This document shows positions 6,281 through 15,869 of a DNA stretch of 31,851 nucleotides, one piece after another. A model generated the notes under the pieces. That model was not told the DNA's origin and ran no database searches. It saw only the letters and a program-made list of their open reading frames with translations. Each line of letters starts with the position of its first letter. Position 1 is the stretch's first letter. A program made the position numbers and the translations under genes. The DNA is from Promethearchaeota archaeon (GTDB taxonomy: Archaea > Asgardarchaeota > Hermodarchaeia > Hermodarchaeales > Hermodarchaeaceae). The stretch is taken from the NCBI GenBank assembly GCA_048938295.1, contig JBHLMI010000028.1, positions 1 to 31,851 on the forward strand, in the 5' to 3' direction.

Positions 6281-7150
6281 GTGGCCGAGGACACGGTCTT
6301 GCAACTCGCTGAAATCAATCGGCTTACAGCTTCTCTGCGTGAGAAGCGTGATGAGCTAAACACTGCCGCTCAGCAGTTAGTTAAGGAAAGGGACAAACTT
6401 AACGGACAAGTCGCCGAGTGGCTGAAGAGGGCTCGTGACCACCGTGAAAAACGTGACGAGTATAATCAAAAGGTTGCCGAGTTCAAGGTAAAACGGGACG
6501 AAATCTACGCGAAACTTAAAGATAAAATCGATGAGCGACAAGACAACGAAAATGAACCTGAAGAGGAAAAAAGGAAACCAACACCTCCAATTCATGTGCT
6601 TCGACGTAAAATCCGTGAGCTTGATTGGTCTCTTCAAACCCAAGTTTTAGATTTGAAACATGAGCGTGAAATCATTGAGCAAATAGCAGAGCTAGAATCC
6701 GAACTCAAGGTTTCTGAAGAAGCTGCGGAGAAGCGCAAAGAGAGTGCAAAGGCGCGAACTGAAATCGATGATCTGCGGCTTCTAATGAATGCACACCACA
6801 ATTCGGTTCTCGAGTTTGCTCGATTATCCCAAGAAGAAAATCAGCTCATGATTGAAGCATATGCTGAAGTAGATGCGCTTCGAAAAAAGGCTGATGAATC
6901 ACATCGGCAGTATCTCGAAACACGGCGCGAAGCTGATGAGACTCATCGTCGATATATTGAGTCCAAACAAAAGAACAATCGACTGAGAAAAGAGCTGGGC
7001 GAAATACGTATACGACGGCGAGTTGAAAAAATCCAAGAACTGGAAGAGCGACTAGAGGAAAAAGCGGCTGCAGCTCTCGAAAAACACAAGCGTGGGGAAC
7101 GCCTTACACTGGAAGAATTCACGCTTCTTATGAAACGTGGCTTACTTTAA
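6281..7150 (+). CDS. Archaeal long coiled-coil protein (COG1340-like)
   Basis: E/K/R-rich heptads throughout, LExxxQT-like central WSLQTQVL, and C-terminal GERLTLEEF. GTG start with GGTGG upstream. Confidence 0.72.
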   Translation: MAEDTVLQLAEINRLTASLREKRDELNTAAQQLVKERDKLNGQVAEWLKRARDHREKRDEYNQKVAEFKVKRDEIYAKLKDKIDERQDNENEPEEEKRKPTPPIHVLRRKIRELDWSLQTQVLDLKHEREIIEQIAELESELKVSEEAAEKRKESAKARTEIDDLRLLMNAHHNSVLEFARLSQEENQLMIEAYAEVDALRKKADESHRQYLETRREADETHRRYIESKQKNNRLRKELGEIRIRRRVEKIQELEERLEEKAAAALEKHKRGERLTLEEFTLLMKRGLL

Positions 7151-7156
7151 CGCGTA

Positions 7157-7573
7157 TTAATGAGTGACTGGAAGCACAAGATCTGCAGCGTGCTGTAGAC
7201 CTCTATTTACCTTATCTGACGTGTAAAGCAAAATCACTTCTTTTCCTAGTTCTCTTGCACGGCTTAGCAGTAACAGGAGATTCTCATTTTCAGTAGCAAT
7301 AGCTAGCGTTTCGATTTTTTCATTATAAATGAGTTCCATGGCTTCAAGGGCCAACTGGATGTCAAGGTCGTCATGGACAATAACAGGAATGAAACCTTCT
7401 TGAGCAATCACTTTAGAAAATTCTACAGCTTCCTGTTGACGAACTACCACCTTACCTATCTTTATATCACCAATCTCTTCTAAGATTGGTCGAAGTTTAG
7501 ATAGTATCTCTGAAAGACCGGATGAAACACTACTATCAACCAATAGCGCCATTGCGGCCTTCTTATCCTTCAT
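7157..7573 (-). CDS. NYN/LabA-fold protein (TIGR00288-like) with degenerate active-site motifs
   Basis: ALLVD, G.IKIGKV, EGF.P, DLDIQLALEAMELIYN, A.ELGK.V, LQHAAD.V match the family pattern. GGAG RBS upstream; 12 bp downstream of uppS. Confidence 0.7.
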   Translation of the reverse strand: MKDKKAAMALLVDSSVSSGLSEILSKLRPILEEIGDIKIGKVVVRQQEAVEFSKVIAQEGFIPVIVHDDLDIQLALEAMELIYNEKIETLAIATENENLLLLLSRARELGKEVILLYTSDKVNRGLQHAADLVLPVTH

Positions 7574-7585
7574 ATCAAAAATCTC

Positions 7586-8359
7586 CTAGTTACCAAATCG
7601 TCGATCTCTTCGTTGGTACGTACGTATCGCTCGCCAAAAATCAATCTTCCGAATTTCTGGCCAGTAAACGTCAGCAAAATAAAGCTCTGAATATGCTGAT
7701 TGCCATAATAGAAATCCTGACAATCGTTCCTCTCCCGATGTTCGAATAATCAACTCCGGATCTGCAATCCCCGCTGTGTAGAGGTGTTTTTCTATGGTTT
7801 CATCTGAAATCTCTGAGGGATCTAGTGTGCCACTACTTACTTTTTCTGCAATGCTTCTCACAGCATCAACTATCTCTGTTCGACCACCATAGCCTATCGC
7901 CACATTCAATTGGAAATTATTATATCCTTTCGTGGCTTCCTCTGCTTCTCTAATCGCCGTGATAACTGATGGGGGAAGTAGGGTCAGCTGCCCAATCGCG
8001 CGAACCCGCACTTTATGGCGGTGGACTACTTCTGATTGAGCTACGGTTTCAAATCTTTGACGGGCTAGTTCCATAATGTGTTCGACTTCTTCTTCCTTGC
8101 GTGAGAAATTTTCTGTAGAAAAGACGTAAATAGTAACGACCTTAACTCCTGCTTCGAAACACCAATCTAGCACTTCATCGATTCGGTGTGCTCCTATTGT
8201 GTGCCCAAAGCTACTATCTTGGCTTTGTTCTTTTGCGTACCGGCGGTTCCCGTCTAAAATTATCCCTACATGCGTTGGCATTGGCTTGTCCTTAACTTGG
8301 CGCCAAAGATACCAAGAATACAAGTGATAGATAGGTCCGATTAGATTGGTCACCAACAA
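7586..8359 (-). CDS. uppS: cis-prenyltransferase (polyprenyl diphosphate synthase)
   Basis: HVGIILDGNRR, GHxxG, YVFSTENFSR, GYGGRTEI, IRTSGEERLSGFLLWQSAYSELYF, C-terminal RRFG. Start is TTG or GTG at 8353-8359. Confidence 0.93.
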   Translation of the reverse strand: MLVTNLIGPIYHLYSWYLWRQVKDKPMPTHVGIILDGNRRYAKEQSQDSSFGHTIGAHRIDEVLDWCFEAGVKVVTIYVFSTENFSRKEEEVEHIMELARQRFETVAQSEVVHRHKVRVRAIGQLTLLPPSVITAIREAEEATKGYNNFQLNVAIGYGGRTEIVDAVRSIAEKVSSGTLDPSEISDETIEKHLYTAGIADPELIIRTSGEERLSGFLLWQSAYSELYFADVYWPEIRKIDFWRAIRTYQRRDRRFGN

Positions 8360-8422: not shown

Positions 8423-8806
8423 TTATCGGTTCAACTTCTTGGCAATTTTTTTTGCTGCGCGTTCCATATTGATAAAAACTAGTCCAAGCCCAGCAAGGCT
8501 TTCCGTGTTGGTACTCACCATTAGTACCGAATCCGGTCCTGCTGCAACCATGATTACTGCCCCGGTACTTCCCTGAGCGAAAACTTGGCTTAATGCACCT
8601 TTCCCTAAATCAGACGCAGCGCGTTCTCCTACAGTAAGCAAGGCGGCGCTCATTGCTGCGAGTAATGTTTCATCATACTCTTCCGGAAGCTTTGCAGCAA
8701 TGGGTAGCCCATCAACACCCACAACAACCGCTGCTTCAATCTCTTCAACTGACTCAGTAAGACTCTCCAATATCTTTTCAATTTCAGGAGAACTGGGTAT
8801 CATCAA
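8423..8806 (-). CDS. Roadblock/LC7 (MglB-like) protein RB1
   Basis: IEAAVVVGVDGLPIAA...DETLLAAMSAALL.VGERA..DLG.G.L.QV....G...LGLV roadblock pattern. 7 bp downstream of the GTPase. Confidence 0.9.
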   Translation of the reverse strand: MMIPSSPEIEKILESLTESVEEIEAAVVVGVDGLPIAAKLPEEYDETLLAAMSAALLTVGERAASDLGKGALSQVFAQGSTGAVIMVAAGPDSVLMVSTNTESLAGLGLVFINMERAAKKIAKKLNR

Positions 8807-8813
8807 TTTAACT

Positions 8814-9401
8814 CTAGCTCGCTGAAGCTTTTGCAGGAGTCTTAGGGTACAAATGGTACATCAAGATATCGCGGGTTATTTGTCTGAACGTGCGTTTCAC
8901 ATTTTCACCCGTTAATGCACAGGTTGTGAAATTTGGCGCATTACCTAGTCCCAGCTTTGCAAGTATGACATTTTTTTCCATAGCGTTTGGCAGGTCCTGT
9001 TTATTTAACATTACAACAAGGCTAATGGAATGGCCGAGTTCTTCACCAACAAAAGAACGCAGCTCAGACATACTTTCAATATTGGCTTCCATTTGATCAG
9101 GTGACGAGTCTGCAACATAAATAATACCATCAACACCACTCAAGATGACCTTTCGTTGACCTCGATGTCGACGCTGGCCAGCAACAGTGTAAACATCGAA
9201 TACTACCTGTGCGGTAGCTTGCATTGGAGTATAATCAAAAAAGAGTGTTCGGCCGGTATGATCGGCGACTGATGTGAATCCGCCTTTGTTTAATCCCTCA
9301 ATATTATCATAAATCCAACGGAGTGCTGTTGTTTTTCCTGATAATGAGGGCCCCCAGAATACGATTTTAAAATGTATTCTTCCCTGTGTGTCTTTCTTCA
9401 A
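8814..9401 (-). CDS. MglA-type small Ras-superfamily GTPase
   Basis: KIVFWGPSLSGKTT (G1), GRTLFFD (switch I with Arg), YTVAGQ (G3), L.GVDGIIYVADS, NKQD (G4), TCA (G5). TTG start with GGAG upstream. Confidence 0.88.
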   Translation of the reverse strand: MKKDTQGRIHFKIVFWGPSLSGKTTALRWIYDNIEGLNKGGFTSVADHTGRTLFFDYTPMQATAQVVFDVYTVAGQRRHRGQRKVILSGVDGIIYVADSSPDQMEANIESMSELRSFVGEELGHSISLVVMLNKQDLPNAMEKNVILAKLGLGNAPNFTTCALTGENVKRTFRQITRDILMYHLYPKTPAKASAS

Positions 9402-9447
9402 AGTAGGACGGCTCCTTCCTTATTCGCGTTGCGATATCCCGTCCCCA

Positions 9448-9918
9448 CTAACCCTTCTCAAGTTCTCCCAATGCGGCCTTAAGCTCTTCCCGCTCCGCAT
9501 CAGTTTTTCCAGCAGCAACGGCAGGCTTTTCGGCCATGAACTCATCTAGTACTTTCGCGAGCTCAGCAGCCGCCTTCATCATTGTTAAGCGTATCATGCC
9601 AATGTTCACTTCTTTATCTGTAATCACGCATAATACACCTTTGCCAGCACCTGCAGCAAAGATCTTGCCATCGCCAAATTCCGACGTCACAATGGTCAAA
9701 TCGCCCACATCAAGGCTCTTACCTTGTTCCTCGCTTGCGCAAAACACGGCACTAGCAATGGCGCCAATACCATCAACGTCCACTGGATAGTATGAGAATT
9801 TCGAGACGTGAGCAATGGTTAGTCCTGTTCGGTCTACTAGAATAGTCTTCTTGATTCCTGGTTCGGATTTGATGACATCGGAGAGGATCTCATCAAATTG
9901 CCGTACGGTTATGGACAC
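9448..9918 (-). CDS. Roadblock/LC7 protein RB2 with C-terminal linker plus amphipathic helix
   Basis: ILVDRTGLTIA...IGAIASAVF.ASEEQGK.L..G.L...SEF..GKIF core, then the tail KPAVAAGKTDAEREELKAALGELEKG. Confidence 0.85.
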   Translation of the reverse strand: MSITVRQFDEILSDVIKSEPGIKKTILVDRTGLTIAHVSKFSYYPVDVDGIGAIASAVFCASEEQGKSLDVGDLTIVTSEFGDGKIFAAGAGKGVLCVITDKEVNIGMIRLTMMKAAAELAKVLDEFMAEKPAVAAGKTDAEREELKAALGELEKG

Positions 9919-9998
9919 GGTTCATCCCTTTCCATGAGGCTAGCCGAGCTTATCTTCGAGAGATGACTTTTAATTCTTGTGTGGAGAATGTTGGATTC

Positions 9999-10286
9999 TC
10001 AACCTCGCATGACGATGAGAATATAGTCCTCTTCGGGGGCGACCATGACCTCACCTGCTGGTGTTGAGATGGTAAGAAAGTTCATGCCGCCTTCTCCTAG
10101 TTCATCGACAACACGTTTAGCCTTTCCTACCAGTGAAGTGACAAGCGCTGCGATGACCTCAGTTTTTTCTGCGTTTAGATTGGAGCTGATTGGAAGGCCT
10201 TCCATGTTAGTAATTATGACGCCACGAACACCTTCGTGGGCTCCGAGGCGCTTTAGTGAGTCTTTTAACGCTTTTCCGCCAATCAT
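9999..10286 (-). CDS. Roadblock protein RB3, dynein light chain roadblock (DYNLRB/LC7)-like
   Basis: LKRL...GV.GVII.N.EG.PI.S...KA...V...FL.I....E.MVAP..DY.LIV. ATG at 10286 with GGAG upstream is preferred over GTG at 10298, giving 95 aa. Confidence 0.88.
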
Positions 10287-10329
10287 TGTACTCCACACTC
10301 TCTAGCCACTGACTAGTGGTCTCTCATTG

Positions 10330-10340
10330 AAGTTATAAAA
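10330..10340. promoter_or_regulatory. TATA-like element in the divergent RB3/RB4 intergenic region
   Basis: AAGTTATAAAA; on the minus strand TTTTATAAC lies about 45 nt above the RB3 ATG. Confidence 0.45.
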
Positions 10341-10471
10341 GTTCCCTCTTGTTCGGAGTTAATATCGAAGTTTTGAAAAAATCTGTCGCCTCTACCTTTC
10401 TGTCGGACAGTTTTTAAACAAGGACACCAAATGCTTTTTATTGCAACCACAATTGCCAAGTTTCACTGGCG

Positions 10472-10855
10472 ATGGGTGTGGCTTTCATGCTCGGAAAGAA
10501 AGAAGTAGAACAGATTCTTGCAGAAATCATGGATACTATCCCTGAACTCGAGGGACTAATCGCCGCCGCTCCGACAGGGAAGGTCGTTGCAGGACAGACT
10601 CTGCGCGAAATGGACCATAATGCCATTACTACAAGCGTTGCTGCCCTGTTGAAGGAAACAAAAATTGTAAGCAAAGCTGTCGATCAAGGTCCCGTGCAAT
10701 CGATGTATTTGGAAACAGATAAGGGTTATACCGTGGCCGTAACTGCCTCAAAGACAATGGTTGTTGCCATCGCCGGTAAAGATGCGGCTCCAAGTCTGGG
10801 ACTCATTATTCGGAGTCTCCGTTCTGCGGTCGATAAAATCGGGAAAACTCCATAA
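10472..10855 (+). CDS. Roadblock/LC7 protein RB4 (divergent)
   Basis: IPELEGLIAA..TGKVVAG...G......ET.KG...LGLI...L..A..KI. Fold pattern and C-terminal LGL motif are shared with RB1. True start may be ATG 10487. Confidence 0.72.
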   Translation: MGVAFMLGKKEVEQILAEIMDTIPELEGLIAAAPTGKVVAGQTLREMDHNAITTSVAALLKETKIVSKAVDQGPVQSMYLETDKGYTVAVTASKTMVVAIAGKDAAPSLGLIIRSLRSAVDKIGKTP

Positions 10856-10986: not shown

Positions 10987-13900
10987 GTGGCTTACTTACA
11001 ACATATCACAATTCAGGGGTTCAAAAGCTTCAGTTCGCGTAAAACCACAATTGATCTCAATAAGGGATTCACCGCAATAGTCGGTGAAAATGGGTGTGGT
11101 AAAAGCAACATTTTGGATGCTGTTTGCTTTGTACTTGGACGGTTAAGCAGCAAATCACTTCGCGCAGAGAATTTTGCCTCATTGCTATTTAATGGAGGTG
11201 CCGATAACACGCCTTCAAAGATAAGTCGAGTGAGTTTGGTTTTTAATAACACTGACCGGCAGTTTCCAATTGACAGTGACGAAATCACAATTAGCCGTGA
11301 GGTGGATGAAACCGGTATTAGCGCTTATCGTATAGGCGGTAAACGTGTTACGCGTACAGAAATGTTAGATACGATAGCTGTCGCTGGGCTCCATCCGGAA
11401 GGCCATAATATCGTGATGCAAAACGAGTTGGCTAATGTCATTACCATGACACCGACGGAGATACGTCAGGTTGTTGAGGGAGTAGCCGGGATTTCAGTTT
11501 TTGATGAGAAGAAACAGCAGATTGAAAGTGAATTAACGAAAGTTGATCAAAACCTTCACATGGTACAGATGCGTACCGAAGAAATTCGTCAAGAATACAC
11601 TCGTTTGGAAAAGGACAGGATAGATGCTCTTCGTTGGCGAGATATAACTGAGCAGCTAGCAAAGCTTGAAAGAGATCTCGTATTTGCTGAACTGGCACGC
11701 GTTGAAGAACGGTTGAACAAAATGAACGAGGAGTTCGAATTGTACTCTTCGAATGTCAAGGAGCTTGAAACTCGCCGTCAACAAGCGAAGGACCGGAAAC
11801 TCGAATTAGAAGAAAGGGCACAAACTGACCAAGAGAGAATAAAGCAATTTGACCAGCAATTGCACCAAAAGGAAATTGAACAGACCCGCATTCAAGAAAT
11901 TCTGAAAGGATCACAACTTGTCTCAGCACAGGTCTCTCAAGATGTTGAACTACTATCTGCAAGCCTGGAACATCTCGAGTCCCAGAAAACCGACAATCAA
12001 AATCGTTACTCCCAAATGGAGGAGGAAATTTCTATCCTCAAATCGCAAGAAGCCTCCTTCCAAGAACGCATTTCTCCTATTCACGAACGTCTTTCAGAAC
12101 TTTCTAGGCAAACCACTTCTCCTGACGCTGAGTACATGTCACTCAGAGAAGAAATACTCAGGCTAACAGAGCGTATTGAAGCCAAGAAGAGTGAACTTGG
12201 CGAAACTTCTGCATTAAGCCGAGTCACAGAAAGAACAATTATGGATACTAAAAAACAAATCGAAGATGGTTACGCTCTTCTTCCTGAACAAGAAATAGCA
12301 CTAGATGAAGCAAATTCAGAGATACAAAACCTCGAAAAACAGCTTCAATCCCTCAAATTAGAGCTAACGAACCTACAGCAACAAAAAGACGAGTATTATA
12401 ATTCATTGCAAGAAAAACAGAACAAGCATGAAGAACTGAACCAATTAATTCAGGATTCTAAAGAAGAACTCCTCGAAGCACAAACTCGATTAAAAACTAT
12501 ACGCGAATTCAAGAAGTATGGTCTTACTCGCAAGAGCGCAATAGATGCAGTTCTGAAACATGCAAAGGAAAACAAAATTCATGGGGTCTATGGAACCCTA
12601 GGCAGTCTTGGAAAAACTTCATCAAAACATGCGACTGCTCTTGAAGTTGCAGGTGGTGGGCGGCTCGATTTCATTGTCGTCGATAGTGAAGAGACGGCTA
12701 CAAAATGTATAGAACACTTGAAGAAGAGTCGTCTCGGTCAGGCAACTTTCATTCCTCTTGATACGATTAAATCCAACCCCTACACTCATAAAAGCGGAGA
12801 AAAGGGAGTCGTGGGGAACGCAATTGATTTGCTGACCTTCGAAGAGCAGTATCGCCCCGCATTTGAATTTGTCTTTGGTCGAACCCTTATTGTGAAAGAC
12901 TTGAAACTTGCTCGCAACATCAGGGCTGAAGGCGTGCGAAAAATCACGGTTGATGGTGATGTTGTTGAACCTAACCGCACATTGACGGGCGGCTTTTACA
13001 AAGGCATCTCCTCATTAACTCTCGAAGAGGAGGCAAGAATTCCAGAGCTGCAGAAAAAACTCAAAGAACTTCGCACGCTCCAAGCCAAAGTCGAAGGCGA
13101 ATATCAACAATGGACAGACAAAATCAGCAATTTGGATAGCCAGCTCAGAGAAAAGCAAAAGCAGTTTGATGAGTTACAACTCAAGTACGATAGAGCCAGT
13201 GAAATTAGAGACTCCCAAGAAGAAGTATTCGCTGATTTCAAAGGAAGTCTTGCGAAACTGCGCGAAAGTTTGAAAGATGAAGAAGACACGAAGAGCTCCT
13301 TAGAAGAGAAATTCCGAGTAGATCAATTGGAAATCGATGAGATGATTAAAAAACGAGAAGAGGTCCAACAAAGCCTTTCGATCCTTGAAAGAAGTAGCTT
13401 GGATCCGAATCTTACAGCTCTTCGAACCCAGCTAGATGAGCTGGAATCAGAACTTCAAGACACACAGCTTCAACTAATCGAGAGAACTAGCGAAGCTAAG
13501 CATGTTAAAGGGGAGGTCAAACGACTTTCAGAAGACCATAATAACGCGAAGGCAGAGTTGACACAGAAAAAAGCGCAACTAGCGGCAAATATAGCTCAAA
13601 TTGAAAAAAATCAAGCGCAACTTACCCAATTAGAAACTGATGTAGCAACCCTCAATGAACAAATACGCGGGCTCGAAACACAAGTTGCAGCTCATGAAAA
13701 TGAAAATCGACAGCTAACAAATACAATCGATGAATTGCTTGATAAGATCAATGAAGAAAAAATGGAGCGTTCTAAGGTCGAAGGGCGGATTGAACACTGG
13801 CAAGAGCGCTATGATACTCAAAAGGAGAAGACTGTGGGGTTAGAGCCGCCTTTGCTCCCCTTAAATCCCGAACAAGTTCTCAGCTTCCGTCGACAGATCG

Positions 13901-14550
13901 CAAACCTCCAACAGGAACGAGAGCAAATGGGTCTCATCAACCAAAAAGCCGTGGAACGCTTTGAAGAAATTCGCCACGCCTATGATGAAATATTAGAAAA
14001 AGAGAGTAAAATTCGAGAGGAACGTGAAGCCATTCTTGATGCAATGCGAAAAGCCGAGGAGGAGAAATTCCGCGTATTTATGGCAGCCTTTTCGAGTATC
14101 TCTAATAATTATTCGGATGTCTATCATCAACTTACACAAGGAGTTGGTCAGCTGGAGTTAGAGAATCCAGAAAACCCCTTTTTAGGAGGGATTCGAATGA
14201 AGGTCAGACCTGCAGGAAAACGCGTCCAATACCTCGATGCCCTTTCTGGTGGCGAAAAGGCACTCACAGCTTTAACGTTCATGTTCGCACTGCAACTCCA
14301 TCAGCCTGCTCCCTTCTACTTCCTCGATGAAATCGATGAGGCCTTAGATCCCAATAACACCGATAGGGTAGCCCAGCTAGTATCAAATCTTTCGGAAAAC
14401 TCACAGTTTCTCATTATTTCTCACAACGAAATTACAGTCCGCAGAGCGCAGGCTCTATTGGGAGTTGCATTGGTTGACGGTGTATCACAAGTCTTTTCAG
14501 TTCAATTTGAAGAAGGCCTGCTGATGATTGAAGGGGCAAGTAAAACCTAG
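10987..14550 (+). CDS. smc: Chromosome segregation protein SMC (condensin)
   Basis: GFKSF, GENGCGKSNILDA Walker A, two long coiled coils, hinge (GVYG...LEVAGGGRL.FIVV...GQATFIPLD), LSGGEK signature, FLDEIDEALD Walker B/D-loop, IISHN. Confidence 0.97.
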   Translation: MAYLQHITIQGFKSFSSRKTTIDLNKGFTAIVGENGCGKSNILDAVCFVLGRLSSKSLRAENFASLLFNGGADNTPSKISRVSLVFNNTDRQFPIDSDEITISREVDETGISAYRIGGKRVTRTEMLDTIAVAGLHPEGHNIVMQNELANVITMTPTEIRQVVEGVAGISVFDEKKQQIESELTKVDQNLHMVQMRTEEIRQEYTRLEKDRIDALRWRDITEQLAKLERDLVFAELARVEERLNKMNEEFELYSSNVKELETRRQQAKDRKLELEERAQTDQERIKQFDQQLHQKEIEQTRIQEILKGSQLVSAQVSQDVELLSASLEHLESQKTDNQNRYSQMEEEISILKSQEASFQERISPIHERLSELSRQTTSPDAEYMSLREEILRLTERIEAKKSELGETSALSRVTERTIMDTKKQIEDGYALLPEQEIALDEANSEIQNLEKQLQSLKLELTNLQQQKDEYYNSLQEKQNKHEELNQLIQDSKEELLEAQTRLKTIREFKKYGLTRKSAIDAVLKHAKENKIHGVYGTLGSLGKTSSKHATALEVAGGGRLDFIVVDSEETATKCIEHLKKSRLGQATFIPLDTIKSNPYTHKSGEKGVVGNAIDLLTFEEQYRPAFEFVFGRTLIVKDLKLARNIRAEGVRKITVDGDVVEPNRTLTGGFYKGISSLTLEEEARIPELQKKLKELRTLQAKVEGEYQQWTDKISNLDSQLREKQKQFDELQLKYDRASEIRDSQEEVFADFKGSLAKLRESLKDEEDTKSSLEEKFRVDQLEIDEMIKKREEVQQSLSILERSSLDPNLTALRTQLDELESELQDTQLQLIERTSEAKHVKGEVKRLSEDHNNAKAELTQKKAQLAANIAQIEKNQAQLTQLETDVATLNEQIRGLETQVAAHENENRQLTNTIDELLDKINEEKMERSKVEGRIEHWQERYDTQKEKTVGLEPPLLPLNPEQVLSFRRQIANLQQEREQMGLINQKAVERFEEIRHAYDEILEKESKIREEREAILDAMRKAEEEKFRVFMAAFSSISNNYSDVYHQLTQGVGQLELENPENPFLGGIRMKVRPAGKRVQYLDALSGGEKALTALTFMFALQLHQPAPFYFLDEIDEALDPNNTDRVAQLVSNLSENSQFLIISHNEITVRRAQALLGVALVDGVSQVFSVQFEEGLLMIEGASKT

Positions 14551-14638
14551 TGAAAACCTCTGATAATACATCAGGTTATATAGGATGCATTTATCAAGTA
14601 TAACAAAATCGTGAAGCCAAAAGGAGAACGATAACCTA

Positions 14639-15328
14639 GTGACAGAAACTAGCCCTGAACCATTCTGGTTCCATCAACCATGGCGAGTCCTTACTGACAT
14701 TCTCGAATTACAAAAGATTAGCCCATGGGAACTTGACCTGGCGGAACTAGTGAATGGGTTTATTGGGCGTTTACTCACCGAAGAATACATCGATCTTCGA
14801 ATTTGTGGTCGTGCCCTCCTTTCAGCAGCTATATTACTACGATTGAAAACAGAGTATCTACTTGAATTCGGGAGAGAGGAAGAGGAAATCCTTCGAGTAA
14901 TCGAGGAAGATATATTTCTCCCTCCAATCCGCCCCCCATTTCGGAAAAATATTCGACCAACATCTTCAGCTGAATTTGTTGAGGCATTACGAGAACTCGT
15001 TTTTCCTCCTAAGAAATATACACGAAAGCACATCAAAGGTAGTGGATCATTACCGGTGATACCCCAGTTTGATGGTTCATCAATCGAATTGACCAAATCA
15101 ATGATGCAAGTCCATGCACGATTAATTGAAGCAAGCCTTAAGAACCATCCAGTCTCGTTCGTCAACTTCGTTACTGGAATGTCACATATCGAAATTATCC
15201 GGGTGTTTCTCTGTCTACTGATCTTTATAAACAAAAGAAGTATCCGGATCGCCCAGGACCGACAATTTGGCGACATAATGATTTGGGTCCAAGATCCTTT
15301 GAGTGAGGAGGCTAGAGCCGGTGGATGA
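14639..15328 (+). CDS. scpA: Kleisin subunit ScpA
   Basis: ISPWELDL...F...DLRICGRALLSAAILLRLKTE N-terminal domain; C-terminal winged helix FL.LL......I.I.Q..QFGDI.I. Follows smc. Confidence 0.88.
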   Translation: MTETSPEPFWFHQPWRVLTDILELQKISPWELDLAELVNGFIGRLLTEEYIDLRICGRALLSAAILLRLKTEYLLEFGREEEEILRVIEEDIFLPPIRPPFRKNIRPTSSAEFVEALRELVFPPKKYTRKHIKGSGSLPVIPQFDGSSIELTKSMMQVHARLIEASLKNHPVSFVNFVTGMSHIEIIRVFLCLLIFINKRSIRIAQDRQFGDIMIWVQDPLSEEARAGG

Positions 15329-15869
15329 GGCAACACGGTTAGTTGAAGCTGCGCTCTATATTTCAGGACGGCCTCTCACAATCCACGAAATCCAACAGGC
15401 TACTCAAATACCCACATTAAGGCAAGTTCGCGATTGTATTCAACAGATAGCTAAGGAGTATGAAGAACGAGAAGGAGCGTTGGAAATCGTCAGGCTTCCT
15501 CGTCAACGCTTTGTCCTCCAAATGAAACCAGAACTCACTGAAGCTGTTAGCCGTCTGGCTCCGCAAGGGCTGCTTGCGTTAGGGGAATTAAAAACGCTCA
15601 TCTATATTGCCCTCTCACAACCAATCCTCCAATCAGATGTTGTCGTCTACCGAGGATCCCATAGTTACAAGCACATCAAGAACTTAGAAGCACATGGTTT
15701 CATTGAAGCCATACCAGCTGGCCGAACAAAAGAACTTGCTACAACTGAAATGTTTGCTGATTACTTCGGATTTGATTATGAAATTGACAAACTCAAAGGC
15801 CAACTCAAGAAAATGATTAGACAAATTCGGATAGAACAGTCCGAACTAACGACTGCGGCTGAGAAATAG
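15321..15869 (+). CDS. scpB: Kite subunit ScpB
   Basis: VEAALYISGRPL, LKTL.YIA..QPI.QSD...RG..SY.HIK.L...GFI, TTEMFADYFG. Start placed at GTG 15321, 9 nt after GAGGAGG (15305-15311), overlapping the scpA end by 8 nt. Confidence 0.9.
   Translation: MDEATRLVEAALYISGRPLTIHEIQQATQIPTLRQVRDCIQQIAKEYEEREGALEIVRLPRQRFVLQMKPELTEAVSRLAPQGLLALGELKTLIYIALSQPILQSDVVVYRGSHSYKHIKNLEAHGFIEAIPAGRTKELATTEMFADYFGFDYEIDKLKGQLKKMIRQIRIEQSELTTAAEK

Follow-up and report, generated by a model that had tools for sequence, protein, structure and literature searches.

Gene layout of the locus

The window analysed here is a 31,851-nt stretch of contig JBHLMI010000028.1 from a Promethearchaeota archaeon of the class Hermodarchaeia. 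Its ORF list includes a minus-strand series of genes in the order RB3, RB2, MglA-type GTPase and RB1, with intergenic gaps of 80, 46 and 7 bp, and a fourth roadblock gene, RB4, that lies on the plus strand and is divergent from RB3. The ORF coordinates confirm the arrangement described in the initial annotation, namely four roadblock genes around one MglA-type GTPase gene, together with its strands and gaps.

8423-8806, minus strand: RB1, 127 aa, full-length roadblock protein
8814-9401, minus strand: MglA-type small GTPase, 195 aa, single-domain
9448-9918, minus strand: RB2, 156 aa, MglB-like roadblock
9457-9501, minus strand: predicted C-terminal amphipathic helix of RB2 (aa 140-154), EREELKAALGELEKG
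9999-10298, minus strand: RB3 as the listed ORF, 99 aa
9999-10286, minus strand: RB3 from the ATG at 10286, 95 aa, truncated roadblock of the 'RBLC7' type
10287-10471: intergenic stretch from which RB3 and RB4 diverge; AT-rich TATA-like boxes read by eye on both strands
10472-10855, plus strand: RB4, 127 aa, full-length, fast-evolving roadblock

The true start of RB3 is likely the ATG at 10286 (95 aa), because GGAG precedes it and the N-termini of orthologs agree. In the divergent region, candidate TATA-like boxes were read by eye on the minus strand at 10333-10340 (TTTTATAA, ~50 nt upstream of the RB3 ATG) and on the plus strand at ~10435-10442 (TTTTTATT, ~30 nt upstream of the RB4 ATG). The GTPase and RB1 genes, at a gap of 7 bp, are translationally close-coupled. 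RB4 is followed by smc, and the interval between UPPS and smc holds the five cluster genes and no other gene. One hallmark of Group 1 MglA is an MglB-family gene no more than four genes away, and here all four Robl_LC7 genes lie at most 1.5 kb from the GTPase gene. With 14 Robl_LC7 matches across the 2.5-Mb genome, four of them within five consecutive genes would be expected by chance at ~1e-5 as a rough estimate; chance clustering is ruled out by the conservation of the same arrangement in other Asgard classes, as described below.

The GTPase and its roadblock neighbours

The GTPase is characterized by a P-loop GPSLSGKT, an intrinsic Arg within GRTLFFD, a G3 motif TVAGQ and a G4 motif NKQD. 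Its best solved relative is the MglA of T. thermophilus (3t12, 1.7e-35, 125 bits), with M. xanthus MglA at 118 bits, and after the MglAs the next solved relative is Arf at 48 bits. The protein scores over the cut-offs of Pfam Arf (54 bits), Ras and Gtr1_RagA, and displays Ras-superfamily motifs that include a Thr in G2 and GQ in G3. Among 64 GTPase relatives, the Arg beside the G2 Thr is kept in at least 58, with Leu or Phe instead only in the Borr-like family f15, and G3 reads TVAGQ in 43, TTAGQ in 9 and TVPGQ in 2. The N-terminal motif (R/K)KDxxGRxHFKIVF is also conserved, and an ortholog at E<=1e-45 is present in 116 of 151 Asgard genomes. Group 1 MglA has been described as bacterial (Wuichet and Sogaard-Andersen 2014, PMC4316618), and the window GTPase shares with it the Arg by the G2 Thr as well as a G3 with Thr in place of Asp, followed by GQ. 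The G3 of the Asgard family is TVAGQ or TTAGQ, whereas that of Group 1 is TVPGQ; in the window protein Thr, Val, Gly and Gln are thus kept and Pro is exchanged for Ala. A further difference, from Thermus MglA, is a β2-β3 hairpin that is 4 residues shorter in the alignment. By sequence, it is best classed as a Group-1-type MglA.

Any two of the roadblocks are only 18-31% identical. On the Pfam Robl_LC7 model RB1, RB2 and RB3 score above the cut-off (57, 41 and 70 bits), and RB4, at 21.6 bits, falls just below the cut-off of 23. The roadblock fold of RB4 is nevertheless confirmed, because its family profile matches PDB 9jq8 at 4e-24 and its AF2 model (helix, two strands, helix, three strands, helix) also has as its best match 9jq8, the MK-D1 'Roadblock2 homodimer', at 38% identity and a TM of 0.86. 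The best matches of the RB1 family profile are PDB 7f8m (Thor-RB, 1e-30) and 9jue (MK-D1 'Roadblock3 homodimer'). RB3 is ~95 aa long and has no C-terminal helix, as in DYNLRB-type roadblocks; its profile best matches 7f8f (Odin-RBLC7, 1e-39) and then human DYNLRB1/2 (~1e-23, 83 bits, over 88 residues for DYNLRB1), and its 24.6 bits on Pfam LAMTOR5 lie under the cut-off of that model.

RB2 is the most conserved of the four, with a mean column identity of 71% across classes. Its AF2 model is a full roadblock fold with T. thermophilus MglB as the best PDB match (3e-10, TM 0.78), and RB2 attains 29.6 bits on Pfam MAPKK1_Int (LAMTOR3; cut-off 25). The NCBIfam MglB-Thermus equivalog model NF052242 gives RB2 29 bits, far under the cut-off of 200, and has no match at all to RB1, RB3 or RB4. 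In the AF2 model a variable linker (aa 130-139) is disordered (pLDDT <50) and leads into a predicted helix at aa 140-154 (pLDDT 54-60). This conserved, tethered C-terminal helix is predicted for RB2 alone among the four roadblocks, and its motif (D/E)(D/E)L(K/E)AALxELE(K/R)(F/V) is kept in every lineage that has a close GTPase ortholog. Helix and GTPase vary together: in the Loki-like families f9 and f23 an acidic tail takes the place of the helix, and their MglA-type gene is unlinked and has diverged further (38-51% identity).

In the tree, RB2, RB3 and RB4 each fall into a single clade and RB1 almost does, a result that is partly circular with the HMM orthogroups in that positional orthologs served to build the HMMs and each sequence was then labelled by its best HMM. 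The low identities and separate clades support the view that the four roadblocks are ancient paralogs rather than recent duplicates. The initial annotation had held the roadblocks to be too divergent for a recent tandem duplication and the GTPase to be MglA-type, with a Thr-type G3 and the Arg of GRTLFFD; both claims stand, the latter on the motifs and on MglA being the best solved relative.

Conservation across Asgard archaea

The order of divergent RB4 followed by RB3-RB2-GTPase-RB1 is found in 12 Hermod loci, and the same five-gene order is seen in those loci of Jord- and Freyarchaeia that are complete, as well as in one Borrarchaeota locus, with ortholog scores in these loci of 90-320 bits as against 16-50 bits between paralogs. 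It is also present in Baldrarchaeia and in families f3, f6, f14, f15 and f26, such that the synteny proposed earlier as a check on the arrangement does recur in several classes. Spacing can be tight, with GTPase-RB1 gaps of 6-10 bp in f6 and f26, and RB3-RB2 gaps of 13-25 bp on the same strand in f6 and Baldrarchaeia. All five families co-occur in most of the 151 Asgard genomes, where RB1 is present in 135 (and in 72/72 high-quality genomes), RB2 in 131, RB3 in 126 and RB4 in 108; in this survey RB4 had no match in families f4 and f13. The five-gene set is a real, ancient module.

Departures from the full order are equally patterned. RB2-GTPase-RB1 stand alone in Heimdall/Hod genomes, with no canonical RB3 or RB4 nearby, and RB3 and RB4 are adjacent without the GTPase in families f9, f23, f2, f10 and f20. 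From such gene orders, the cluster is read as two units, RB2-GTPase-RB1 and RB3-RB4. In f4, f13, f24 and f25 RB3 is still beside the GTPase and RB2 has moved away; all four roadblocks are together, and the GTPase elsewhere, in f2 (L068) and f20 (L070); and Loki-like genomes retain all four roadblocks in dispersed form. An apparent absence of the GTPase from Loki-like f9 (0/25 at E<=1e-45) was rejected as a threshold effect, because f9 does carry an unlinked MglA-type gene, 38-51% identical, in which RTLFFD and TVAGQ are present. In many classes smc is next to RB4, and the block DUF7121-NYN-UPPS-...-SMC-ScpA is syntenic as a whole, including genes of unrelated function; part of the five-gene linkage may therefore be frozen synteny and not an operon.

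Coevolution of the five families was examined by mirror-tree analysis with partial Mantel correlations and a UPPS control. The partial correlations were 0.61 for RB2-RB3, 0.55 for RB2-RB4, 0.48 for GTPase-RB1 and 0.39 for RB3-RB4, and RB1-RB2 (0.21) and GTPase-RB2 (-0.14) were not favoured as pairings; these values serve as a lead only, because the 13 taxa are few and related and the orthogroups were picked by score thresholds.

Proposed working of the module and its relation to known systems

On balance, we take the locus to be the Hermodarchaeial representative of a small-GTPase switch system of five genes that is pan-Asgard and operates by the mechanism proposed here, and we consider it likely that at least RB2 and/or RB1 regulate the window GTPase. 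As the GTPase has its own catalytic Arg and Gln, its regulator would need only to position these residues and would supply none itself. RB2 may take the role of the MglB1 protomer of bacterial MglB, because its roadblock fold continues through a flexible linker into a conserved C-terminal helix and its gene lies directly upstream of the GTPase; in bacterial mglBA, mglB likewise lies directly upstream of mglA. The tethered helix would tune nucleotide affinity and exchange, and the face of the roadblock dimer would order the switch regions, leading to stimulation of hydrolysis. In MglB, the Ct-helix of one protomer suffices for nucleotide exchange, and GAP activity is attributed chiefly to the other protomer via Asn37 and Arg98 (PMC11016934). 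A mapping of these two residues onto the roadblocks was dropped as uninformative, with Asn37 aligning to the Thr of VDRTGL in RB2. RB1, co-translated with the GTPase, could add a second subunit to the platform or form a dimer of its own. Were RB1 and RB2 locked into a heterodimer, the asymmetry seen when one MglB homodimer binds one MglA (2:1) would be built into the complex. RB3 and RB4 would constitute a second, separable roadblock unit that may attach to the first and serve there in localisation or as an adaptor, in the way that Myxococcus MglC docks on MglB (PMC10329633) and LAMTOR4/5 stands beside LAMTOR2/3. We infer in this manner all protein contacts and the GAP and GEF roles of the module as well as its cellular output, which at a guess is spatial or membrane-site control.

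The initial annotation suggested a heteromeric roadblock scaffold whose GAP, GEF and adaptor roles would fall to separate subunits. The action of all four roadblocks and the GTPase in one assembly is a tentative proposal, somewhat short of an even prospect, and the specific pairing into RB1/RB2 and RB3/RB4 heterodimers is doubtful. Heterodimers are not required, as orthologs of RB1 (7f8m, 9jue), RB3 (7f8f) and RB4 (9jq8) crystallise as homodimers (PMC10933270). Improbable in our estimation is a single stoichiometric hetero-oligomer, combining the GTPase with two unlike roadblock dimers, that already existed in the last Asgard common ancestor; it would be the prokaryotic equivalent of the stacked platforms that roadblocks build in eukaryotes, and in it the tethered helix of RB2, or another helix, would fill the open groove of the truncated RB3. 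The same crystals would suit a module with no fixed heteromeric scaffold, in which separate homodimers of all four roadblocks alternate on the GTPase or on each other like Myxococcus MglB2/MglC2. However, subunits expressed alone may homodimerise despite having a heteromeric partner, so that the crystals are probably compatible with heterodimers too, and the RB3-RB4 and RB1-GTPase linkage together with near one-to-one co-occurrence fits fixed partners equally well; we regard such alternation as possible and rather unlikely.

Two further explanations loosen the tie between the roadblocks and the GTPase. The cluster could comprise two independent systems, RB2 (perhaps with RB1) being an MglB-type GTPase regulator and RB3/RB4 a GTPase-independent adaptor pair resembling dynein light chains, brought side by side by inherited synteny in a housekeeping block. 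The families with RB3-RB4 adjacent and no GTPase nearby, the Heimdall/Hod loci, the conservation of the DUF7121-to-ScpA block with its unrelated genes, and the dynein light chains as the nearest non-Asgard relatives of RB3 all agree with this, and dynein light chains bind helical peptides and not GTPases. Yet RB3 immediately precedes RB2 and shares its strand, at the short gaps noted for f6 and Baldrarchaeia, it is RB3 that neighbours the GTPase where RB2 has gone elsewhere (f4, f13, f24, f25), and the highest distance-matrix correlations among the 13 related taxa are RB2-RB3 and RB2-RB4; we judge this explanation unlikely. A more distant prospect, which we consider very unlikely, is that the quartet is mainly a GTPase-independent scaffold, e.g. 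for machinery at the chromosome or the membrane, such as the nearby-encoded SMC-ScpAB or cis-prenyltransferase, with the MglA-type gene as an optional add-on. Retention of the roadblocks where the GTPase has moved away (L068, L070 and Loki-like genomes, in the last of which it has also diverged) implies that their function may not depend on it, and the many smc genes adjoining RB4 point the same way. In such genomes, however, a protein of the MglA type that has RTLFFD and TVAGQ is still encoded at another site; the 13 genomes of f16, f19 and f22 have no RB1, RB2 or RB3, one weak match to RB4 and only a distant GTPase paralog; and it is established that roadblock dimers serve as platforms for GTPases (PMC10933270 and its references).

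Comparison with bacterial MglA/MglB (Thermus thermophilus 3T12/3T1Q; Myxococcus xanthus 6IZW/6H5B) reveals the same placement of an MglB-architecture gene, RB2, directly upstream of the GTPase, whereas the Asgard locus has four distinct roadblock genes and that switch has one, and RB2 remains far below the NCBIfam MglB cut-off. We know of no gliding or type IV pilus polarity system in the host. In Myxococcus, mglC is not known to be part of the mglBA operon. The Myxococcus RomR/MglC/MglB complex has two roadblocks, MglB and MglC (PMC10329633), the latter an MglB paralog (PMC4719450), so MglA systems with several roadblocks also exist outside the Asgard lineage. Both have more than one roadblock paralog around a single MglA, one dimer docking as an adaptor in Myxococcus, but MglC and MglB are each homodimers whereas the Asgard locus gathers four paralogs in one cluster. 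Our verdict is that the module is a novel form of an MglA/MglB-kind system.

With Ragulator (LAMTOR1-5) the locus shares several different roadblocks, full-length and truncated, alongside a small GTPase; RB2 passes the MAPKK1_Int (LAMTOR3) threshold and the RB2 profile has a weak match to LAMTOR2, and RB3 weakly matches LAMTOR5. In contrast, Ragulator has two full-length and two truncated roadblocks, each pair a heterodimer, where the Asgard locus has three (RB1, RB2, RB4) and one (RB3), its partner is a Rag heterodimer with C-terminal roadblock domains rather than a 195-aa single-domain MglA type, and it has LAMTOR1 as wrapper and membrane anchor where the Asgard cluster has no further gene between UPPS and smc. 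The suggestion in the initial annotation of an intermediate towards eukaryotic multi-roadblock complexes such as Ragulator is short of its defining parts: the GTPase does not resemble Rag, and the cluster shows no wrapper like LAMTOR1. RB3 is like the dynein light chain DYNLRB/LC7 in its ~95 aa, its lack of a C-terminal helix and its match to human DYNLRB1, and differs in being encoded next to RB4 and as part of an operon-like series that includes an MglA-type GTPase gene. To our knowledge, archaea have no dynein.

Dozens of proteins of the small-GTPase and the roadblock or longin kinds are encoded in Asgard genomes. Genome layout rarely reveals which regulator pairs with which GTPase (PMC10933270), and the cluster is an exception in which one GTPase comes with four named candidate partners. 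These partners are short, soluble and conserved across the phylum, so the complex could be rebuilt in vitro from many orthologous sets, and the cluster is a testable candidate for a multi-roadblock GTPase platform. If the heteromeric assembly holds, such platforms would be older than eukaryotes and the dynein-light-chain-like RB3 would have a pre-dynein function; if it does not, the locus would still be an archaeal version of the MglA/MglB switch and a natural test of the asymmetric MglB mechanism. In the searchable literature we found no description of the five-gene cluster or its two sub-modules. Among earlier studies, the Asgard-specific core genes counted by Liu et al. (bioRxiv 10.1101/2020.10.19.343400) include three families of roadblock/longin proteins and two of small GTPases. 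A Thorarchaeota GTPase was modelled by Dinet et al. 2026 (PMC13408092) together with its MglB homolog as a dimer, and the structures of Thor-RB (RB1-like) and Odin-RBLC7 (RB3-like, PDB 7f8f) come from Tran et al. 2024 (PMC10933270). The statement of Tran et al. that GTPase genes of MK-D1 are generally not in operons with roadblock genes (PMC10933270) fits the dispersed Loki-like state but fails for most other Asgard families.

Layout and conservation of the roadblock–GTPase cluster

Four roadblock (Robl_LC7) genes, RB1–RB4, and one MglA-type GTPase gene form a real, ancient and phylum-wide module. Contig C39, which makes up the window, belongs to an assembly of 2.5 Mb and 91.6% completeness; the closest homologs and loci carry the label Candidatus Hermodarchaeota. 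The five-gene arrangement proposed in the initial annotation, with RB4 divergent, is confirmed by the ORF listing:

8423-8806, minus strand: RB1, 127 aa (Robl_LC7, 57 bits)
8814-9401, minus strand: MglA-type GTPase, 195 aa
9448-9918, minus strand: RB2, 156 aa (Robl_LC7, 41 bits)
9999-10298, minus strand: RB3 (Robl_LC7, 70 bits; likely ATG at 10286)
10472-10855, plus strand: RB4, 127 aa (Robl_LC7, 21.6 bits, just below the cut-off of 23)

Gaps of 7, 46 and 80 bp separate RB1/GTPase, GTPase/RB2 and RB2/RB3, respectively, and a single intergenic region lies between the divergently transcribed RB3 and RB4. From its sequence, RB3 most likely starts at the ATG and would comprise 95 aa, because GGAG lies 5 bases upstream and ortholog N-termini read MI(G/S/T)xK. 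Pairwise identity among the roadblocks is 18–31%, in agreement with the high divergence first claimed for them. As a Pfam profile search of the window's own genome gives 14 Robl_LC7 matches in 2.5 Mb, four inside five genes are not a chance occurrence.

Gene order, whose conservation across Asgard genomes had been put forward as a check, is retained in Hermod, Jord, Frey, Borr, Baldr and further families. In 19 loci from named lineages (12 Hermod, 4 Jordarchaeia, 2 Freyarchaeia and 1 Borrarchaeota; L014, L016 and L018 are incomplete or broken), RB4 is divergent from RB3-RB2-GTPase-RB1 wherever the contig reaches far enough, and roadblocks score 90–320 bits against their own counterpart versus 16–50 bits for the other three. 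Baldrarchaeia carry the same five genes, then UPPS (cis-prenyltransferase) and NYN, whereas Heimdall B3 and Hodarchaeales have only RB2-GTPase-(yhbY)-RB1. A Thor-labelled MAG has RB2-GTPase-RB1 in the Heimdall/Hod gene context.

Gene arrangement by family (f codes) in representative regions taken from 151 Asgard genomes
All five genes: f1, f3, f6, f8, f14, f15, f18, f26
RB3-RB2-GTPase-RB1: f7, f12, f17
RB2-GTPase-RB1: f21
RB3-GTPase, mostly with RB1 further downstream: f4, f13, f24, f25

Genome-wide profile searches recover RB1 in 135 of the 151 genomes (72 of 72 of high quality), RB2 in 131 (71 of 72 of high quality), RB3 in 126, RB4 in 108 and the GTPase, at E<=1e-45, in 116. In f16, f19 and f22 the profile search did not find RB1, RB2 or RB3; RB4 gives one weak match in 13 genomes, and only a more distant GTPase paralog is present.

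The cluster also breaks into parts. RB3-RB4 adjacency persists without a nearby GTPase, co-directionally in f9 and f23, which are Loki-like, and divergently in f2, f10 and f20. In f2 (L068, a complete 1.4-Mb genome) and f20 (L070), RB4 is divergent from RB3-RB2-RB1 and no GTPase lies between RB2 and RB1; apart from the GTPase, L070 retains the block from SMC-ScpA to UPPS-NYN-DUF7121. In f9 and f23, RB1 and RB2 each stand alone and the C-terminal helix of RB2 is gone; RTLFFD and TVAGQ occur there in an MglA-type gene that is unlinked and only 38–51% identical.

In many surveyed loci RB4 is adjoined by smc and RB1 is followed by UPPS. The extended block DUF7121-NYN-UPPS-RB1-GTPase-RB2-RB3, divergent from RB4-SMC-ScpA-ScpB, recurs in several Asgard classes (flanks at 6281-8359 and 10987-15869 of the window; loci L001-L018, L030, L032, L049, L063 and L070), an unusually long-range conservation given functionally unrelated genes. 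Since UPPS, NYN, DUF7121 and SMC-ScpAB are syntenic as well, part of the roadblock/GTPase linkage may reflect a frozen core region.

No description of the five-gene cluster was found in openly available full-text literature. Among Asgard-specific core genes, Liu et al. count three families of roadblock/longin proteins and two of small GTPases; the operon that they describe, in which the gene for a LAMTOR1-like roadblock accompanies those for a Rab-like GTPase and a DENN protein (10.1101/2020.10.19.343400), is distinct from the present cluster. Tran et al. determined structures of individual roadblocks, as homodimers, and noted that GTPase genes of MK-D1 generally lie outside roadblock operons (PMC10933270). 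Dinet et al. built a model of a Thorarchaeota GTPase together with its MglB homolog as a dimer (PMC13408092).

In the Loki-like genus g25 (L066:6236-6649, minus; L078:6194-6691, minus; L080:6117-6614, plus), the frames of the RB2 ortholog and of the MglA-type gene are open over the full protein match, yet none of ATG, GTG and TTG occurs where the start is expected; the L066 frame begins right behind stops (TAA and TGA) and has no start-like codon near it other than ATT. An assembly error could account for this, as could a start codon outside the canonical set. In f21 (Heimdall/Hod type), a lineage without canonical RB3 and RB4, a tandem pair of genes for weakly RB3-like truncated roadblocks (L072:6078-6742, minus) lies away from the GTPase cluster and may, in diverged form, stand in for RB3 and RB4.

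Identity of the GTPase and the roadblocks

The GTPase has T. thermophilus MglA (1.7e-35, 125 bits) as its best solved relative, which bears out its assignment as MglA-type, with M. xanthus MglA at 118 bits and Arf proteins next at <=48 bits. Its motifs are GPSLSGKT, GRTLFFD, TVAGQ and NKQD, preceded upstream of the P-loop by a conserved N-terminal (R/K)KDxxGRxHFKIVF. Wuichet and Sogaard-Andersen defined Group 1 MglA, then described as bacterial, by an Arg beside the G2 Thr and TVPGQ (PMC4316618), whereas G3 here is TVAGQ; relative to Thermus MglA, the beta2-beta3 hairpin is shortened by four residues. Among 64 Asgard relatives, at least 58 retain the G2-adjacent Arg, and G3 reads TVAGQ in 43, TTAGQ in 9 and TVPGQ in 2.

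RB1 profiles match Thor-RB (7f8m; Tran et al. 2024) and the MK-D1 'Roadblock3 homodimer' (9jue) ahead of actinobacterial CvnB and MglB. RB2, the most conserved of the four (mean column identity 71%), passes the Pfam LAMTOR3 model (29.6 bits; cut-off 25), scores 29 bits on the NCBIfam Thermus-MglB model (cut-off 200), and only weakly matches MglB and LAMTOR2 in profile comparison. Its AF2 model has a full roadblock fold, closest to T. thermophilus MglB, with residues 130-139 disordered before a terminal helix (140-154) whose motif (D/E)(D/E)L(K/E)AALxELE(K/R)(F/V) is kept everywhere but in f9/f23. RB3 is of the truncated type without a C-terminal helix, with Odin-RBLC7 (7f8f) best at 1e-39 and human DYNLRB1/2 next at ~1e-23. 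A profile of RB4 orthologs has the MK-D1 'Roadblock2 homodimer' (9jq8) as its best match, at 4e-24; the AF2 model has a full roadblock fold (TM 0.86 to 9jq8), and RB4 evolves fastest (mean distance 1.48 versus 0.47 for RB2). In a quick ML tree RB2, RB3 and RB4 each occupy one side of a well-supported branch (SH-aLRT 98–99), and RB1 groups with other generic roadblocks of the genome.

The Borrarchaeota-like f15 GTPases (L019:4144-4731, L021:5001-5591, L041:6350-6937) have lost the intrinsic Arg finger (GLTLYFD or GFTLYFD) and have an altered P-loop (GASPSGKT or GPSPSGKT), yet all four roadblock genes are retained; such a GTPase may be locked, or else activated in trans. The window's own genome has two more MglA-like paralogs (C23:17936-19463, plus; C7:9765-12184, minus) scoring 152 and 134 bits with the GTPase HMM, the former right behind the gene for a 321-aa roadblock-containing protein and the latter at a distance of ~0.9 kb from the gene for another, of 308 aa; each makes up a roadblock-plus-GTPase module of its own. 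Every f6 genome carries a second MglA-like paralog of ~280 aa (L031:6187-7026, L033:5757-6596) with neither roadblock neighbours nor RTLFFD.

A candidate mechanism and the scaffold reading

The module is a variation on MglA/MglB in which the four roadblock paralogs fall into two units that can be separated. In bacteria, an MglB homodimer engages a single MglA in an asymmetric way. One protomer's C-terminal helix, bound away from the nucleotide pocket, suffices for nucleotide exchange, and GAP activity is mainly ascribed to the other protomer, whose Asn37 and Arg98 fix Switch I in place and leave catalysis to the Arg and Gln of MglA itself (PMC11016934). MglB behaves as both a GAP and a GEF (PMC13408092), and a second roadblock protein, MglC, docks on it with RomR (PMC10329633). 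By analogy, RB2, with its helix, would correspond to MglB1, RB1 would contribute another subunit or dimer to the platform and be produced along with the GTPase, and RB3 and RB4 would be an accessory roadblock unit.

The genomic data support RB1–RB4 and the GTPase as a functional set, within which any contacts, stoichiometry and activities are putative. That the four roadblocks form a heteromeric scaffold is a plausible hypothesis, but a fixed assembly of this kind sits poorly with the homodimers formed in crystals by RB1, RB3 and RB4 orthologs, with the persistence of the quartet without an adjacent GTPase, and with distance-matrix correlations that do not single out RB1-RB2.

At the Heimdall/Hod RB2-GTPase-RB1 loci, a convergent gene for a TPR protein always lies right after RB1 (L020:6628-7398, L022:6524-7774, L025:6628-7875). 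As SgmX, an effector of Myxococcus MglA, is likewise a TPR protein, this neighbour is a candidate effector.
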